Below are positions 2,319-45,136 of a stretch of DNA of 45,310 nt, piece after piece (position 1 is the stretch's first letter; each line of letters starts with the position of its first letter). Under the pieces are notes generated by a model. It made no database searches. It saw only the letters and a list, made by a program, of their open reading frames with translations, and had not been told where the DNA came from. The translations under genes and the position numbers were made by a program. This DNA is from a virus (taxonomy: Duplodnaviria; Caudoviricetes): IMG/VR virus record IMGVR_UViG_3300037483_000040, positions 1 to 45,310 of that record. The stretch is one strand, 5' to 3'.

Positions 2319-3071
2319 ATGGAATTGGCAATCATCTCACCTCCTTCTTGTCTCGAACTTTCCGCCATCCAAGATACCTTTCATATGGTACTCCCCGAAG
2401 GGATGGTTCTCAGCCCAGACTACGTCAGGTTCTATCGTGACAGTCAAGGGTACAAGGTCCTTGACAACGGTCTGGTGGAGGGGAAGCAGTACACAGGGGT
2501 TGAGCTCCATCACTTGGCTGACCAGGTGGGCGCTAACTGCATCGTCATCCCAGATCAATTTCGTAACGCCGATAACACCATTTGGATGGCCCGAGATTTC
2601 GAGCGCCATCGTAATGCGGATCTCGACTACATGGGTGTACTACAGGGTTTGGACCTAGGAGAGTTCCTAAGCGTTCTTAGGTTCTTCGAGAAGCAGGAGT
2701 GGATCACACATATTGGATTACCTAGAATTCTCTGCGAGATACATACGACGCAGAGACTCAGTCTGGTTGATCTGATTAAGAGAGAACAGGAGAAGGGTAA
2801 CTTTAGACCCTTCACCATTCATGCTCTTGGAGGTTCACCTTGGATTGAAGAGGTGATGTTTCTTAATGAGCACGGATGTAACAGTATGGACACCTCTCTC
2901 CCTGTGGTGATGGGTTTGGCAGAGCGGAGCTTGAGTCAGCCTTACATTAGCAGACAGGAAGGGTTCATGTTTGCTGACGTCAGTCGGAAATCGAATAAAT
3001 GGAGGATCCTCGTTGACAACTGTCGAACCTATCTCGAGTGGGCAGGCTATCGGCTCGGGAGTGATTCGTAA
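2319..3071 (+). CDS. DpdA-like / TGT-fold 7-deazaguanine transglycosylase
   Basis: TIM-barrel TGT-like motifs LDNG, VIPD, GVLQG, IHALG and SMDTS occur in the correct order; genomic context with folE/queD/queE. Confidence 0.7.
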   Translation: MELAIISPPSCLELSAIQDTFHMVLPEGMVLSPDYVRFYRDSQGYKVLDNGLVEGKQYTGVELHHLADQVGANCIVIPDQFRNADNTIWMARDFERHRNADLDYMGVLQGLDLGEFLSVLRFFEKQEWITHIGLPRILCEIHTTQRLSLVDLIKREQEKGNFRPFTIHALGGSPWIEEVMFLNEHGCNSMDTSLPVVMGLAERSLSQPYISRQEGFMFADVSRKSNKWRILVDNCRTYLEWAGYRLGSDS

Positions 3072-5373
3072 ACATCCGGAGGCTAAGTGTGAGTCTTGTC
3101 CTCTCTATGCAGACAAAGCCGCCCACTACACACCGGGCTACGGACCACCTAATGCATCCATTGCTATTGTGGGAGAAGCGCCAGGCCATCAAGAGGCTCG
3201 CTATGGTAAACCCTTCGTTGGGCCTAGCGGGAAGCTACTTGATCAGGTACTTGCCCACCATGGCATCGATCGATCACAGACTTACCTGGATAACATCGTC
3301 GCATGTAGGCCGCCCGATAATCGTACTCCAACCCGAGAAGAGATTCAAGCCTGCTGGCCTCGGGCCAAGTATGAGATTAAGAGACGGAACCCTCGCACTG
3401 TTGTGGCTCTCGGCAATACTGCGAGCCAGACTATCACCCGAAGTAGTACAGGAATTACGTTGCTGCGTGTGGGTCCTCCACGAGAGGCTGATACCTTTCC
3501 AGGAGTGCGAGTCATCCCTACAGTCCACCCAGCCTTTTGTCTTAGAAGCTCTGATGCCTTCCCCTTCTTCGTTGCAGACATCGGAAAGATCAACGGGACA
3601 CCAAAGCCATGGACACCACCACAGTGGGCTGCCATTGAGGATCCCGAAGCAGCCATCCTAGCTCTCCAGGAGCTTCAACGTAAGTACACAGAGATTGTAG
3701 TTGACATTGAGTGTAAGATCGAAAAAGATGCAGCCTACGACCATCCTGACCAGTACGCGATGCTTTGTATCGGATTCGCCTATGCGCCTGGTAAAGCGGT
3801 TGTTATCGGAAAAGGCGCTTTGGCAGACGAACACGTACGAGAGCAGCTCAGCACTCTATTCAGAGACAATACAAAGAGGTGGATCGCACATAACAGCAAG
3901 TTTGACACTGCAGCGCTCCATGGCTGGTCGCTTGGTGATAACGTATATTTCGACACGATGCTTGCCAGTTACGTCCTTGACGAAAGACCCGGGACGAATT
4001 CGCTTGGCTATTGCGCGGTGGAAGATCTAGGAGCGCCTGATTGGAAGCACGCTGTAGACCCATACATTGGTAAAGACAAAGACTACAGTCTTATTCCAAG
4101 GAAGATCCTCTATCAGTACAATGCTTATGATTGTGCTAGCACTTTTGATCTAAAGGAGTTCTACACTCCGAAGCTAGAAGCTGAAGGACTTCGGCCTCTA
4201 CATGACTTCTTGACTCGAGCATCAATGGGTCTAAAGTACGCAGAGATGAAAGGTGTCGGAGTTGATATTGATGTCCTTGATGATCTGAGCGAGGAATACA
4301 CAGGAAAGCTGGCAGAGCTCGAGAGCAATCTATCTAGATGGATTGCTAATCCCCGTTCGCCAAAACAAGTGAAGGAAGCGCTACAGGCGCAGAAGATTAA
4401 GGTACCAGATACCACAGAGGACACTCTAACAAGACTGAGGGAGAAAGTTGCACCAGAAGGAGAAACAGACAGATTCCTCGAGCTCCTCCTCCAACACCGA
4501 AAGGCAACAAAGTTCTACGGAACGTACGTTAAGGGAATACGTACACGCCTTCGAAGAGGAATGGTACACACTAGTTTCCTCGTACACGGAACTACTACAG
4601 GTCGCCTGTCGAGCCGTAATCCAAACCTTCAGAACGTTCCTCGCGGACCTCGTATACGTCGGATGTTTATTCCTGCTCCTGGTTATGTATTTGTACAGGC
4701 AGACTATGGGCAGATTGAGCTACGAGTCGCGGCAATCCTTTCAGGGGATCCTTATCTTTGTTCTGTTTTTAGTGATACTAGTCGAGATCTGTTTGATGAG
4801 CTTGGCCTTCAGCTGTATGGTCCCGATGCTCTTGGACCCAATCGTAAGGAACTTCGAATAAGAACTAAGGCATACATTTACGGTGTGGGCTATGGTCGCT
4901 CAGCTTACGATATTGCACGAGAGCATCGCATTACAGAACGGGAAGCTCAGACAGGCATTGATACTTACTTCGGACTCGCTAGCAGACTGAACACATGGCG
5001 TCACGAGTTGATCAATCAGATCCTTGATGACACCTCTCCTGATCTCCAAACTGTCTTCGGTCGTAAGCGTCGCTTCTGGTTAATCACAAGGGACAATCAA
5101 CAGGATGTCATCAAACAAGGACTTGCCTTTATCCCTCAGTCAACGGCTAGCGACATTAACCTCCTTGCCGCAACTCGCCTGCGTCTCGACTATGGGTTGG
5201 ATGTACGGATCCTCGTGCATGACTCTACAATGGTTGAATGCAGAGAGGAAGAAGCAGAAGCTATCTCCCCTCTCATGTGTCGAGTGATGTCAGAGACCGC
5301 TGCAGAGATCATGGGCGACCAGATCCCATTCATTGTCGAGTCCGAGATAGGGAAGAATTGGGGGTTCGTATGA
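3061..5373 (+). CDS. DNA polymerase family A with N-terminal family-4 uracil-DNA glycosylase-like domain and 3'-5' exonuclease
   Basis: UDG4: CxxC, VGEAPG..E, PFVGPSG, CRPPDNR, HPA. Exonuclease: VDIE, HNSKFD, YNAYD. Polymerase: TGRLSS, ADYGQIELR, KAYIYG..YG, VHDS. The start is likely the GTG at 3061 rather than 2971. Confidence 0.95.
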   Translation: MIRKHPEAKCESCPLYADKAAHYTPGYGPPNASIAIVGEAPGHQEARYGKPFVGPSGKLLDQVLAHHGIDRSQTYLDNIVACRPPDNRTPTREEIQACWPRAKYEIKRRNPRTVVALGNTASQTITRSSTGITLLRVGPPREADTFPGVRVIPTVHPAFCLRSSDAFPFFVADIGKINGTPKPWTPPQWAAIEDPEAAILALQELQRKYTEIVVDIECKIEKDAAYDHPDQYAMLCIGFAYAPGKAVVIGKGALADEHVREQLSTLFRDNTKRWIAHNSKFDTAALHGWSLGDNVYFDTMLASYVLDERPGTNSLGYCAVEDLGAPDWKHAVDPYIGKDKDYSLIPRKILYQYNAYDCASTFDLKEFYTPKLEAEGLRPLHDFLTRASMGLKYAEMKGVGVDIDVLDDLSEEYTGKLAELESNLSRWIANPRSPKQVKEALQAQKIKVPDTTEDTLTRLREKVAPEGETDRFLELLLQHRKATKFYGTYVKGIRTRLRRGMVHTSFLVHGTTTGRLSSRNPNLQNVPRGPRIRRMFIPAPGYVFVQADYGQIELRVAAILSGDPYLCSVFSDTSRDLFDELGLQLYGPDALGPNRKELRIRTKAYIYGVGYGRSAYDIAREHRITEREAQTGIDTYFGLASRLNTWRHELINQILDDTSPDLQTVFGRKRRFWLITRDNQQDVIKQGLAFIPQSTASDINLLAATRLRLDYGLDVRILVHDSTMVECREEEAEAISPLMCRVMSETAAEIMGDQIPFIVESEIGKNWGFV

Positions 5374-10310: not shown

Positions 10311-12580
10311 ACGATTGTAGGCCTATCTACTTCGATGGCACCAAGAGCCACAATGAAGTATCCTGAAGCAATCGTACCTCGTTCATCCTTCCAACTATTG
10401 AAGAACAGATAGCGCTGATGCGTAGCACTAGTTTGGACTAGAACAACTTGCTGCGCATCATAGATCGCCTTCAGGTTATCATAGTCAGTCTGGGTAATAC
10501 ACTCAACCTGGAGTGTCTGCTCTACGCCCTTAGTACCATCAGAAACAACTACCTTGCGAGGGCGTCCTAGAGGACTAAAGGCCGCAGTCTCTGCAGGGAT
10601 ATTAGCATCCCATGACCCAGGGAGAAGTTGGAAGGTCTTGTTCAGTGTAGGTATGAGTACAGTCTTGAACCACCAGGTATAGGGAGCAGCGATAGTCCAA
10701 CCACTACTGAATCCTACACCTTGAGTTGAAGATACAGGTGAGCCTGCAGCTAGAGTAACGGCCTCGGACGTATAGAACCTTGAAGTAGCTGGAGGCTCTT
10801 CGTAATCGTAGTACTGTGTGAAGGCTAGATTCTGGTTAGCGCCAGTACGAGCAATCGTCCAAACCTTCCCTGTGGAGTCAGTTAAGGTCGTAGACCCGAT
10901 TAGCGACCCTCTGAAGTCAGGATTAGCAACGATTGCAGCCGAGCTGTTCTGTACCTCAGCGTAGTAGACCCTGAATAGGCCCTGAGCAGTATTGTTGGAT
11001 CCGTTGATCCCTAGTACAGAAGTAGTCGAGGTCATAGTGCCTGAGCCTGTACCTGTAAAGGATCCAAGCGTTTGCCAATTAACCTTTGACGGTACAGTAT
11101 CAGGAGACTCGAAGCTATACCAGAAGTCTGTATGCCAGTTAGAAGCTGTAGTATGCTTACATCGTAGCCAGAAAGGCGTCTTGACAGCGGGCATTGTTAG
11201 AGCTGTGTTACACAGAGCTGTCTGTAGAGAGCCATTCCAGAACTCGAATTGAGGCTTATTGCTGGACATCATTCTGAGGTTCCAGCTCACACTACCTGAG
11301 GTATCATTCTTGACGATTAGGTACTCGCCACTTGGAGTCGCTTCAAATGATACAAGTAGACGAATATCGATATTACCTGTAATGGCAAGAGATGCATGAT
11401 GAGGTGTAGTGATATGGTTACCAGAGGTAGAGCCGGTGCGCATACCAGTCATCGTAGCGTCGTTGATTCCTCCACGAACGAATTCTGTTACACCATTAAC
11501 AGAATCAATCAACTTGTAGACGTTGAAGTAACTCGGATAGGGTGTAGAGCTCCATGATCCTTGTACTACCTCAATATCGATACGTGCATTGGTATTGTTG
11601 CCAACAGCAGTCATCGTAGGAGCGGAAGGAGCTGTACCATTAACCTGGAAGACAGCACTTGCCGTCCAGGAAGAAGCCATCTCCACACTGTTTACAGGTG
11701 AATGCCAAACCTTAACGTAAGCATAGTAGTTTGAAAGGTTTGTTAGGCCTTTAGGCGAGACAGTACTCTGACTAGCAGGACCAGGAACGACTCCACTATC
11801 ATATGCAGTTGATGTTGCAAGGGAAGGATCGTAACCAGATGAACCCGGAGATCTACCATAAGCATCTAGGACATCGCTCTTGACAACTACAACACGATAC
11901 TGTGACTGGATAGTATTTTCAGTATCGGCATACGTCCACTTGATAGTAGGCGTAGTGGTAAAGGTCTGACCTGCTGATAAGTCAGTAGGTTGAATGCCAC
12001 TAACAGTAGGAGGCTGATCGTAGAAGACCCTAACAAACATCTTGTACAACCTATTGAGACCAGTACCACCAGTGTACTCGGTCCAGCTGTACAAGATTCG
12101 CATGTTACTGAAGTCTATCTTGTTCCAGTCAAGATAGTCGTAACCGAACCCATTGTTGTACTGCCACGTATTGTTGAATGATACAACAACATCGCGAATG
12201 ACACTATCAGCAGGCGATGTATAGTACCAAGCACCTGCATTAGTACCAAGAGGAGTCTGAACATTTGCGAAGAGATCAGGACTCCAAGGAGATCTGTATG
12301 CACTCTTAGGTGGAGCGTACAAACCATATGAGGCAGTAGTCATTGCAGTAGCATGTGCTACGCGAATGTGCAGCTCAGCTCCTGTAACTACAGCACCGCC
12401 AGGAATAGTAGGATTGGGCATCCCCAAGATGTCAATACCAGGAACGCCAGTTTCCTCTTTGACATATGTAGCATCAGAAGCGTCTGATTCAGCTTGCCAC
12501 CTTGTAGCAGCGCCAACGATAGCTGAGACTAGGGGATAGCCACCAATGTCGCTATTGGGTGCGATGTCAACAGAGCCCAT
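10307..12580 (-). CDS. minor tail protein (distal-tail-like, with Fn3/lectin-like inserts)
   Basis: 757 aa, Ser/Thr- and beta-rich, directly after the tape measure gene; PTIKWTY..QSQYRVVV Fn3-like segment. Confidence 0.75.
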   Translation of the reverse strand: MGSVDIAPNSDIGGYPLVSAIVGAATRWQAESDASDATYVKEETGVPGIDILGMPNPTIPGGAVVTGAELHIRVAHATAMTTASYGLYAPPKSAYRSPWSPDLFANVQTPLGTNAGAWYYTSPADSVIRDVVVSFNNTWQYNNGFGYDYLDWNKIDFSNMRILYSWTEYTGGTGLNRLYKMFVRVFYDQPPTVSGIQPTDLSAGQTFTTTPTIKWTYADTENTIQSQYRVVVVKSDVLDAYGRSPGSSGYDPSLATSTAYDSGVVPGPASQSTVSPKGLTNLSNYYAYVKVWHSPVNSVEMASSWTASAVFQVNGTAPSAPTMTAVGNNTNARIDIEVVQGSWSSTPYPSYFNVYKLIDSVNGVTEFVRGGINDATMTGMRTGSTSGNHITTPHHASLAITGNIDIRLLVSFEATPSGEYLIVKNDTSGSVSWNLRMMSSNKPQFEFWNGSLQTALCNTALTMPAVKTPFWLRCKHTTASNWHTDFWYSFESPDTVPSKVNWQTLGSFTGTGSGTMTSTTSVLGINGSNNTAQGLFRVYYAEVQNSSAAIVANPDFRGSLIGSTTLTDSTGKVWTIARTGANQNLAFTQYYDYEEPPATSRFYTSEAVTLAAGSPVSSTQGVGFSSGWTIAAPYTWWFKTVLIPTLNKTFQLLPGSWDANIPAETAAFSPLGRPRKVVVSDGTKGVEQTLQVECITQTDYDNLKAIYDAQQVVLVQTSATHQRYLFFNSWKDERGTIASGYFIVALGAIEVDRPTIV

Positions 12581-35599: not shown

Positions 35600-35816
35600 G
35601 TCGCGCCTGACGTACTCTCAGGAGTACATCAACGTTGATGTGCAGGCAGCGAGCGGGTCATCGGCACAGCGCGGTGTCGGTGACCCAATCGGTGCAAGCG
35701 CTAAGTGACACCCCCTCTCGTCACTATACTAGTTCGCCAACTAGTCAAGCGGTACCTTGTACCAGGGCTTGGCTCGGCAGACATCTTTGCAACGGGAGTC
35801 TGCCGAGTCAGTCCTT
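35600..35816 (+). ncRNA. putative structured non-coding RNA (cluster 1)
   Basis: At least 6 consecutive hairpins, including two 13-bp stems with G-U pairs on the + strand. Confidence 0.65.
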
Positions 35817-35841
35817 GTCCAAACATACCCACAGGAGCTTT

Positions 35842-36213
35842 GTGTCGTTCGAGTTTACTGGCGAGCGTGCCGACGAGGCACGTGACGCAACCCTTTCTTA
35901 CATGAAGGACCTACTAGACGTCTTCGAGACTGCTACCACGAACATTCGACACGAGATCGAACAGGGTCCGAGGCATCTGCCTTGTATTCTAGCCAACCTC
36001 GTCGTACAGGGTGGTCTCATCGACGAGTGGAATGCGATGGTAGCTGCGAAGCTCGGACCTGAAATGTATAGCACGGCTGTAGAGCAAGCGTCTGAAATGT
36101 ATATCGAAGTTCATGCACGTGCGTTCAATAGGATGACGATCGAGGAAAGGCTGACCCTTCTTCAAAGGCTTATAGCAACAGCACAAATCCAAAGTGCTAG
36201 GAGGAACAACTAG
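35842..36213 (+). CDS. hypothetical protein
   Basis: AGGAG SD before the GTG at 35842; the 35635 start runs through the hairpin region and is unlikely. Confidence 0.7.
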   Translation: MSFEFTGERADEARDATLSYMKDLLDVFETATTNIRHEIEQGPRHLPCILANLVVQGGLIDEWNAMVAAKLGPEMYSTAVEQASEMYIEVHARAFNRMTIEERLTLLQRLIATAQIQSARRNN

Positions 36214-36954: not shown

Positions 36955-36984
36955 GTGAAATGCTCCGCGTGGGAGTTGTATAAT
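36955..36984 (+). promoter_or_regulatory. promoter GTGAAA-N18-TATAAT
   Basis: Boxes at 36955-36960 and 36979-36984; spacer begins TGCTCC as in related promoters. Confidence 0.65.
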
Positions 36985-37037: not shown

Positions 37038-37475
37038 ATGAGCATGTACGATGACACCGAGCAGGAGCAGGAGCAGGATGGCATTCAGGGTCTGGCGAGT
37101 GAGCTGACTGATGATGACGCTCCCACCGATGAGACTCCTGCCACTGAGAGCGATGAGACGCCTGAGGCTGCAGCGAAGCCCGTGTCGACCAAGACGGCTG
37201 TGCCTGACGGCCACGAGGCTCCTGTCGCCTTCGCTCGCCGAGTCGATCCGAACATGAAGCCGCAGGTGATGTATGGCTACGTCAGGGGTAACCCTGAGCT
37301 GAAGAAGATCCTTCACGACCTTGGCGAGACGGCCAAGCCGCGCTTCGTGATTCCGATCAACGAGGGTCTTGAGTGGTGGGGGAGCATCCAGGCTAAGCGT
37401 GCTGCGCGTGCTGCCGCTACTGTTACCACCACCCCTGTCGCTACGCCTCCGGAGGATGTCCCCGTCGAGGCGTGA
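37038..37475 (+). CDS. HTH-like protein with acidic disordered N-terminus (paralog 3)
   Basis: APVAFARRVDPNMKPQVMYGYVR motif; AGGAG SD; own promoter. Confidence 0.75.
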   Translation: MSMYDDTEQEQEQDGIQGLASELTDDDAPTDETPATESDETPEAAAKPVSTKTAVPDGHEAPVAFARRVDPNMKPQVMYGYVRGNPELKKILHDLGETAKPRFVIPINEGLEWWGSIQAKRAARAAATVTTTPVATPPEDVPVEA

Positions 37476-37478
37476 CGA

Positions 37479-37549
37479 TGTGGAGTGACTGGTGACCTAC
37501 TAGGGCATCTTTGCAATGGATTCCTTTCGGAGCCAGTCACTCCACACCA
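37479..37549 (+). ncRNA. tRNA-mimic-like RNA: 13-14-bp closing stem ending in ACCA, with internal 7-nt TT-GCA-AT loop
   Basis: TGTGGAGTGACTGG pairs with CCAGTCACTCCACA, followed by CCA; three small internal arms. Confidence 0.55.
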
Positions 37550-37617
37550 GGTTAGGTAAGCTCAATTGGCAGAGCTCCGGGACGCCGGGTGTGTAGGTTC
37601 GAGTCCTACCCTTTCCA
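37550..37617 (+). tRNA. tRNA-like element with canonical D- and T-arms but a 4-nt loop in place of the anticodon loop (pseudo-tRNA or mimic)
   Basis: D-arm AGCTCAATTGGCAGAGC; T-arm GTAGG-TTCGAGT-CCTAC; middle arm TCCGG-GACG-CCGGG; acceptor stem has 2 mismatches. Confidence 0.6.
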
Positions 37618-37621
37618 CATC

Positions 37622-37875
37622 GGGGGAGTCGGTGCCCGTGACCCTGAAAGATGGCCTGTTCTCGGCGAACGGGCATCGGCTTCCTCTCAGTACAGGGTCT
37701 AACACTAGGTAAGAGTCGAAGCCCGAAACAGTGTTGGCCGGGCCTGATCACCTTGTTCGATCGTATGAATACAACAGAGCGCTCCAACCCCTGAGTGCAT
37801 CCTAGACTAGCCCGACAAGTCGACCCAACTGGTGCTCCCTCTCCCTGCACCCATAGGTCCTTGTCGGGCTAGTCT
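37622..37875 (+). ncRNA. further structured RNA domains (cluster 2); the last hairpin may also act as terminator
   Basis: 18-bp stem 37622-37639/37669-37686 with 4 G-U pairs; 16-bp perfect stem 37804-37819/37860-37875 enclosing nested stems. Confidence 0.6.
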
Positions 37876-44255: not shown

Positions 44256-45136
44256 CTATTTCAGATGCTGATCTACAATCAGTTGTTACGCCCCGCGGAG
44301 TTCCTAATGCGTCTCCCCCGGTCCCTGTCAAAGCACTGACACCACAGAGCCTTGGTGGTCTCACCGTTGCTACTGTGCAGGAGTCAGCTAACACAATCAA
44401 CATGATTCTGTATGGCGACTCTGGAACGGGAAAGACTCGACTCGCAGCTACGGCAGAGAACGTCCCAGCGATGTCTCCAGTGCTCTTCCTGGATATTGAG
44501 GGAGGCGTATCAAGTATTAAGCATCTGCATCCGACCATTAGTGTTATTCGTATCACTGCCTTCGACCAGATGCAGAAGGTGTACGATGCCCTCTATGATG
44601 GGAAACACCCCTATAAGACTGTCGTTGTAGACAGCCTCACTGAGGTCCAGAAGGTCGGTATGTACGGCATCATGGAGAAGGCCGTTATCAAGGACACTCA
44701 GCGCGACCCCGACCTCCCAGGTATTGGTGAGTGGGGTAAGAACACTGAGCAGATGCGAAAGTTCGTTAGAGCGTTCCGTGACATCCCTAATGTTAATACT
44801 ATCTTCACTGCACTCAGGATGGATGATCGCAATCCTCGTAGCGGTGTCACAACGACTCTCCCAAGTCTGTCTGGTAAGTTGGCCAAGGAGGTTAGTGCCC
44901 TTGTAGATGAGGTTCTGTACTACTACATCAAGAACATCGAAGGTAAGTATCAACGCCTCCTGTTGACTACCAAGACAGAGGAGATTGTTGCAAAGGATCG
45001 TAGCGACAATCTTCCAGTAGTAGTAGTGGAACCAACGATGCAAGACCTATACAACTACATCACACACAAAACACCCAAGAACCGAACTGATCCTATTTCA
45101 CCTCAGGAGACAAACGAAGATGGGCTTGCGAGTTAA
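44252..45136 (+). CDS. AAA_24 / Sak4-like RecA-fold ATPase (recombinase)
   Basis: YGDSGTGKT, FLDIEGG, VVDSLTE and AKDR motifs. Confidence 0.88.
   Translation: MTISDADLQSVVTPRGVPNASPPVPVKALTPQSLGGLTVATVQESANTINMILYGDSGTGKTRLAATAENVPAMSPVLFLDIEGGVSSIKHLHPTISVIRITAFDQMQKVYDALYDGKHPYKTVVVDSLTEVQKVGMYGIMEKAVIKDTQRDPDLPGIGEWGKNTEQMRKFVRAFRDIPNVNTIFTALRMDDRNPRSGVTTTLPSLSGKLAKEVSALVDEVLYYYIKNIEGKYQRLLLTTKTEEIVAKDRSDNLPVVVVEPTMQDLYNYITHKTPKNRTDPISPQETNEDGLAS

Follow-up and report, generated by a model that had tools for sequence, protein, structure and literature searches.

A conserved 70-nucleotide element with a tRNA-type 3′ end and a likely tRNA-Cys(GCA) origin in an uncultured phage

Immediately 5′ of a tRNA-like gene in an uncultured phage lies a long perfect hairpin helix that ends in CCA, and the question it raises is whether this marks an RNA in its own right. 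The DNA analysed here (the window) is a linear virus record from IMG/VR, 45,310 nucleotides long and about 72% complete, and the hairpin, which we call element A, lies on its + strand (Table 1). A comparison of two phage sequences shows that it is real, structured and conserved, with a 3′ end of tRNA type but without a cloverleaf fold.

Table 1 Features of the locus (positions in the window)
Feature	Position	Strand	Basis
Promoter-like site, sigma-70-type (GTGAAA-18-TATAAT)	36955..36984	+	10/12 consensus match; a match is not proof
145-aa ORF, immediately 5′ of element A	37038..37475	+	52% identity over 120 aa to L008 ORF
Element A, 70-nt tRNA-Cys-like RNA gene	37480..37549	+	unique helix, fold z, ortholog L008:1439-1508
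Element A closing helix, 5′ strand	37480..37493	+	first 6 nt = tRNA-Cys positions 2-7, one common actinomycete type
Element A closing helix, 3′ strand	37532..37545	+	pairs with 5′ strand
Element A conserved interior core, ends in UUGCAAU loop	37496..37517	+	local alignment to L008 interior
Element A UUGCAAU loop, with 4-bp stem	37511-37517 (loop); 37507-37510/37518-37521 (stem)	+	arm pair probability 0.94-0.98
Discriminator-like A and CCA	37546..37549	+	A-C-G-G in ortholog
Element B, tRNA-like gene, normal D and T arms	37550..37617	+	Rfam RF00005, 39.1 bits
Element C, 18-bp helix with 4 G.U pairs, same non-coding cluster	37622..37686	+	z -4.2
Element E, 16-bp perfect helix, C-rich loop	37804..37875	+	z -8.9
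Element F, separate hairpin, UUGCAAY 7-mer (35787-35793) central, then GGGAG	35769..35811	+	fold, loop ranking

Helix, fold and 3′ end of element A

The pairing that had been predicted is exact. Positions 37480-37492 and 37533-37545 form a perfect 13-bp helix followed by A-CCA at 37546-37549, and the helix can be extended inward by U37493.G37532 and outward by U37479-A37546. Element A is the sole case in the window, on either strand, of a perfect helix of at least 11 bp with a CCA tail. Its fold has a z score of -5.9 and none of 200 shuffles was equally stable. As had been anticipated, ARAGORN makes no call in the window and there is no T-loop; D-arm and T-arm are likewise absent, and no Rfam family matches element A at E up to 10. 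The following base, 37550, had been taken for the 5′ end of a tRNA-like element, and the Rfam tRNA match starts there.

The interior fares differently. The cloverleaf of the original prediction has a free energy of -29.3 kcal/mol against a minimum of -36.9 kcal/mol, a gap of 7.6 kcal/mol, and an ensemble probability of 1.6e-6. Only one of its small arms stands, that with the GCA loop (pair probability 0.94-0.98), whereas the CCU/AGG and UCC/GGA arms have pair probabilities of about 0; the positions of the small arms differ in the ortholog.

That ortholog (L008) was the one true ortholog among four loci that a motif of the upstream protein retrieved from metagenomes, and the evidence for conservation of element A is thus a comparison of two sequences. 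L008 carries the same ORF, preceded by a related ORF, and its promoter region is similar. Element A starts 4 nt past the stop codon in both phages and has the same 66+4 nt in both, with 66 nt from the first G to the last C. The L008 helix is a perfect 14 bp whose outer 6 pairs are identical to those of the window. When the 14 pairs are compared without gaps, eight are identical, six are changed on both sides and none is broken; part of these double-sided changes is equally readable as paired one-base indels, and two sequences do not allow covariation statistics. The L008 copy has the same fold z score (-5.9), its interior folding differently. Both interiors nevertheless contain a 22-nt core with UUUGCAA at its end; compensating indels displace it by 8 nt between the copies, and the score of this alignment was reached by 0 of 5000 shuffles.

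The discriminator and three further nucleotides precede the next tRNA in both copies. The gene that follows is a normal tRNA-Met(CAU) in L008, apparently of initiator type from its 1.72 mismatch, and an anticodon-less tRNA (element B) in the window; element A therefore persists while the gene behind it gets swapped. The encoded CCA, whose loss in homologous loci the original prediction had named as a refutation, is not kept, the ortholog reading A-C-G-G. This loss means little: of 44 distinct tRNA ends in a control actinomycete genome (G044, 45 tRNA genes), CCA is encoded in only 10 and C74 in every one, and tRNA-Cys of this genome ends U-CGG. What both copies keep is the discriminator A, C74 and the spacing, an A-C-N-N pattern and hence the tRNA-gene convention of such hosts. 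In dimeric pre-tRNAs of T4 the spacer is 3 nt and CCA is not encoded, and RNase P accepts hairpins with a 3′ RCCA as substrates (PMC11143913). The double-sided helix changes and the exact spacing in the ortholog support the proposed tRNA-mimicking RNA that would end at an RNase P site.

Likeness to tRNA-Cys and to known RNA classes

The sequence of element A points to tRNA-Cys, for which we compared 28 actinomycete genes from 29 loci and those of G044. The invariant outer 6 bp equal tRNA-Cys positions 2-7/66-71, a match made by no other of the 45 tRNAs of G044. This acceptor type is found exactly in 10 of the 28 Cys genes and with one pair different in 11 more. Over the first 18 nt (loop excluded) Cys ranks first for 21 of the 28 genes in all three scoring schemes, and second to eighth for the remaining seven; a best match this good to any tRNA arose in 1.6-2.2% of 2000 permutations, for an 18-nt window chosen after the data were seen. 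The independently conserved loop reads U-G-C-A-A, that is U33, anticodon and A37 of tRNA-Cys. Comparison over the whole length is less telling. Cys comes first narrowly (z 2.3-2.8, about what is expected for the best of 45), Val or His aligned equally well or better in some schemes when element A was taken singly, and the G044 tRNA-Ala(UGC) likewise has exactly UUUGCAA as its anticodon loop. Taken together, these comparisons make ancestry in, or mimicry of, tRNA-Cys the probable origin of element A.

The resemblance to actinomycete tRNA-Cys(GCA) extends to acceptor pairs 2-7, D-stem-like 5′ bases, GGCA before the anticodon arm, the U-GCA-A loop and a length of about 70 nt. Unlike tRNA-Cys, element A has a continuous 13-14-bp helix, no D-arm, T-arm or T-loop, A at position 73, a register shifted by one base and an anticodon stem of 4 bp or weaker.

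Several of these differences bear on aminoacylation. Together with the GCA anticodon, U73 is a major determinant for CysRS (PMC9976931). Position 73 is A in both copies, not U, and the base that would occupy it in the Cys register would be C in both; pair 3-70 is G3-C70 in both, not G3.U70. Charging by CysRS, for which the original prediction had allowed, appears unlikely with A73 in both copies. Since A73 and G3-C70 are joined by the absence of T- and D-arms, charging combined with decoding is unlikely too, and element A is probably uncharged. Mimicry of tRNA-His is ruled out by the absence of G-1:C73, as is charging with Ala by the absence of G3.U70. A T-box-like pairing through UGGA was also considered and is not preserved in L008 or in element F.

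Element A was next set against known classes of RNA. Neither copy receives an Rfam (RF00005) or ARAGORN call as a canonical tRNA and neither has a T-loop; both do have a discriminator followed by CCA or C74 (A-CCA in the window, A-CGG in L008). The arrangement is like that of the T4 tRNA-Pro-tRNA-Ser dimeric pre-tRNA, which has 3 nt between discriminator and next tRNA; in such dimers CCA is not necessarily encoded and RNase P separates the units (PMC11143913). Both copies lie less than 5 nt from the 5′ end of the next tRNA. Element A departs from the T4 dimers in that the leading unit is not a canonical tRNA and that the unit behind it, in the window, is a tRNA lacking an anticodon. Like the selC* tRNA-Cys and allo-tRNAs, it is non-canonical with a lengthened acceptor stem, and selC* shares the GCA; some of these RNAs occur in phages, in polycistrons of irregular tRNAs (PMC5389517, PMC7609411). 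As described in those sources, selC* and allo-tRNAs combine a branch split 8/4 or 9/3 with a T-arm, a D-arm and a long variable arm; position 73 of selC* is U. Element A, in contrast, would be 13/0 or 14/0, uninterrupted, with A73 and no T-stem.

C4 antisense RNA, M3 RNA and pre-4.5S RNA are small and closed by a long terminal helix. All three are non-tRNA substrates of RNase P (PMC11143913). Element A resembles them in its long terminal helix and predicted RNase P maturation and differs in having no Rfam match, no convincing antisense target in the window and a tRNA-Cys-like sequence. The Y RNA YrlA, a tRNA-mimicking small RNA with a long terminal helix, is known from actinophages, and Y RNAs (YrlA/YrlB) are recognised by a tRNA-like D/T elbow, a Ro-binding helix and a linked Ro60 gene. 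Element A has no D-/T-loop domain and no Rfam match, and no Ro60/TROVE gene was found among the ORFs scanned (Pfam, PHROG). Element A is not a canonical tRNA, a selC*/allo-tRNA or a Y RNA; it is placed like the first unit of a T4-type dimer.

A proposed function and its alternatives

The GCA-bearing loop of element A recurs on other hairpins. Element F, with UUGCAAC as its central 7-mer, is one. Another, at L008:49-121, is tRNA-shaped, with a 6-bp acceptor containing G3.U70, a T-arm, no D-arm and GUGCAAC central on a 9-bp arm. NUGCAAY is thus central in four hairpins across two phages. When sites are ranked by symmetric pairing around the 7-mer, F comes first and A third (tied) among the 46 sites of the window, and the two L008 elements come first and second among the four sites of that locus. 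The L008 copy of A is the weakest case: GCA is predicted at the centre of a 7-nt loop in the window, whereas UUGCAAC in L008 gives no clean 7-nt loop, its symmetric stem being weak, in competition with the main helix and missing from the predicted fold (score 7.5, with 7 or more at 12% of positions). An 11-mer shared by A and F was discarded as evidence in its own right, since a shared word of this length turned up in 176 of 300 random 40-mers. Allowing one mismatch in the loop motif gave no enrichment (2 found versus 2.5 expected). Separately, L008 1-121 as a whole reads as a 10-bp helix element, C-UCCA and then the tRNA-shaped RNA with its GUGCAAC apex, a second odd dimer; ARAGORN and Rfam give no call for it.

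We propose, with slightly less than even confidence in the proposal as a whole, that this conserved 70-nt element, likely derived from tRNA-Cys(GCA), yields a stable, probably uncharged RNA whose GCA loop would act as bait for proteins that recognise the tRNA-Cys anticodon. Transcription would run from the promoter-like site, from 36984 onward, through the ORF and the tRNA genes. RNase P cleavage at the 5′ end of the following tRNA would free the 3′ end of element A, which the start of element B would define. In the window this end would be a ready-made ACCA; in L008 it would need trimming and CCA addition, as in the T4 dimeric pre-tRNAs. A second RNase P cut, at G37480, is likely since a long helix with a 3′ RCCA resembles the hairpin substrates of this enzyme. 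The former 5′ strand of the D-arm would have re-paired with the 3′ side into one continuous helix of about acceptor-plus-T length, removing the elbow required for decoding, and the loss of U73 would block cysteinylation. The exposed loop could then titrate a host tRNA-Cys anticodon nuclease or another anticodon-binding protein, and this is the weakest step.

The main rival, itself unlikely but a serious contender, sees in element A a tRNA-Cys relic that now forms a stem protecting the 3′ end of the upstream mRNA. RNase P would cut only at the following tRNA, the ORF mRNA would end in a long helix and NCCA, and element A would never be released alone. The start of element A 4 nt past the stop codon in both phages suits this arrangement, as do the helix being the best conserved structural feature while the interiors fold differently, and the dispensable encoded CCA. 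A protective stem has no need, however, of the invariant outer 6 bp and A-C, of a 22-nt interior core whose conservation exceeds chance (0 of 5000 shuffles), or of the same loop in F and at L008:49-121.

The proposed bait can be given a more specific form, which we regard as rather unlikely: the GCA loops, displayed by several structures otherwise unrelated to one another (A, F, the L008 copy of A and L008:49-121), would form a set of RNA decoys against a host tRNA-Cys nuclease that cuts in the anticodon. Mycobacteria possess a nuclease whose cut in tRNA-Cys falls within the anticodon loop (PMC5175351). The rationale for a decoy comes from the tendency of phages not to carry tRNAs whose cleavage site is the anticodon itself; phage tRNAs are considered to be replacements for host tRNAs cleaved by defence nucleases (PMC10264068). 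Such replacement fails when the cut lies inside the anticodon, where a resistant copy is impossible. A non-decoding RNA that keeps a tRNA-like end and an anticodon loop would be, if true, a different answer and an RNA-only counter-defence against tRNA-cutting immunity. Such genes would have gone uncounted because tRNA finders and Rfam miss them. Whether RNase P and the CCA-adding enzyme tolerate a 13-14-bp helix that lacks a T-loop is a question for which element A would be a natural test case. Were it only an mRNA 3′ stem, it would be a modest example of a re-used tRNA relic.

Less likely still is an antisense or kissing-loop RNA of the C4/CI type that RNase P would mature and whose single-stranded core would pair with an RNA of the phage or its host. 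The tRNA-Cys anticodon loop is complementary to UUUGCA, UUGCAA can pair with itself, sequence conservation is concentrated in the weakly paired interior, and C4 and M3 RNAs are precedents for phage RNase P substrates (PMC11143913). The search for a partner speaks against it: the window, about 72% complete, yields at best a duplex of -26.9 kcal/mol (near 10553), hardly better than the -26.1 to -20.8 of 12 shuffled cores. Its site is the non-coding strand of a tail gene, and the opposite strand reaches -20.9.

An aminoacylated non-canonical tRNA, donating its amino acid outside the ribosome or decoding in an unusual way, is improbable. Minihelices can be charged (PMC9976931), and the 13-14-bp helix, the discriminator with CCA or C74 and the GCA loop would fit such an RNA; the identity elements do not (A73 rather than U73, G3-C70 rather than G3.U70, no G-1:C73, no T- or D-arm), and no synthetase-like gene was found among the 49 ORFs searched in Pfam and 36 in PHROGs.

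Very improbable is an inverted repeat acting at the DNA level, as a protein-binding or replication/packaging signal with arms homogenised by template switching and no RNA function. The 13 core pairs are all Watson-Crick, TTGCAA is palindromic, and a perfect Watson-Crick helix cannot by itself separate selection on RNA from selection on DNA, but such a repeat explains neither the base-exact placement ahead of a tRNA 5′ end in both phages nor the likeness to tRNA-Cys, the + strand of the nearby helices C and F contains G.U pairs, and in a near-identical strain (run X2) G.U becomes G-C at 35808 in element F, both strain differences on the single 467-nt contig over F (depth 3.6) interchanging G-C and G.U.

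The locus and its other RNA elements

Genes recognised in the window (Pfam/PHROG) include a Mu-like portal and protease, tape measure, GH25 endolysin, family A polymerase, ligase and SNF2 helicase. An actinobacterial host is likely because the terminase, endolysin and helicase have their top GenBank matches in Arthrobacter and Microbacterium phages (30-39% identity); the capsid matches are mixed. QueE-like and GTP cyclohydrolase genes and the family A polymerase lie at 545-1828 and 2971-5373. The former two likely serve 7-deazaguanine DNA modification, and the polymerase has an N-terminal domain of the uracil-DNA-glycosylase superfamily.

The promoter-like site likely drives the ORF and the RNA cluster, and its -10 region and flanks are preserved in L008. 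The 145-aa ORF has no match in Pfam or PHROG. Structure-based comparison gives, as a lead only, a possible excisionase/HTH_17-like domain (Atlas features 0.84-0.87, TM about 0.6, below the tool's bar). Further strong intergenic hairpins lie 5′ of element F, at 35620-35730 and 35655-35686, and the true start of the ORF listed at 35635-36213 is probably only at about 35902.

Relatives were sought widely. BLASTN of the region, element A, the L008 copy and F against GenBank phages matched only the tRNA-like element B. Protein-led scans of IMG/VR (upstream ORF, two-sequence alignment, back-translated motif and ligase) gave no relatives. An alignment of the helicase gave 74 loci, one of them close (L082), which does not reach the region because its 5-kb fragment starts about 1 kb before the helicase. 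A pattern of the end plus the loop found 71 loci in IMG/VR, with a longest helix of 10 bp, and none judged related among 120 of about 170 stretches from 46 of 64 parts of GTDB; one of the GTDB loci (L272), an 18-bp AT-rich rod without the core, was judged unrelated. A pattern of the core likewise gave, in 120 of about 210 stretches from 37 of 64 parts of IMG/VR, no nearby tRNA call and none judged related. A two-copy profile run over the window and 460 loci recovered the copies themselves only (next best E 0.13), and the upstream ORF was not found in 401 genomes drawn from the class of G044. A second protein homolog (P0002) is present on a 49.9-kb Logan contig. No description of such an RNA was found in a literature search that covered few subscription journals.

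Element B has two U.U mismatches in its acceptor, and a 4-nt loop (CCGG-GACG-CCGG) replaces the anticodon loop. The arm with the GACG loop is identical in an unannotated element of Streptomyces phage Yara (L002 ~893-960), and an IMG/VR phage has a similar CCGG-N4-CCGG anticodon-less tRNA-like gene (L005 ~1480-1552). Another unannotated tRNA-like gene of Yara (L002 75-160), called tRNA-Gly(acc) by ARAGORN, is notable for its long anticodon arm; the ORF downstream of it looks TerD-like.

Element C contains GTGACCCTGAAAG. The structured stretch past the tRNA of L008 (~1638-1652) contains GTGACCTGAAAG, and L005 has TGACCC..ATGGCC at ~1582-1600, after its anticodon-less tRNA; the three stretches possibly represent another conserved RNA motif. 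HDV-like and hammerhead ribozymes were considered for element C and set aside, their core motifs being absent by eye. Within the Sak4-like gene, at 44980-45014, a 12-bp hairpin carries TTGCAAAG, complementary to part of the conserved core of element A, probably by chance.

Element E likely closes the cluster. Long hairpins whose loops are C-rich and anti-Shine-Dalgarno-like adjoin odd tRNA genes in the window (37804-37875) and in L008 (~1845-1870), where a degenerate tRNA-like element at ~1767-1835, with a T-arm-like hairpin ending UCCAC, has no ARAGORN or Rfam call. The same type of hairpin occurs in Microbacterium phages Finny and Fulton (L001 ~655-690; L003 ~665-686).
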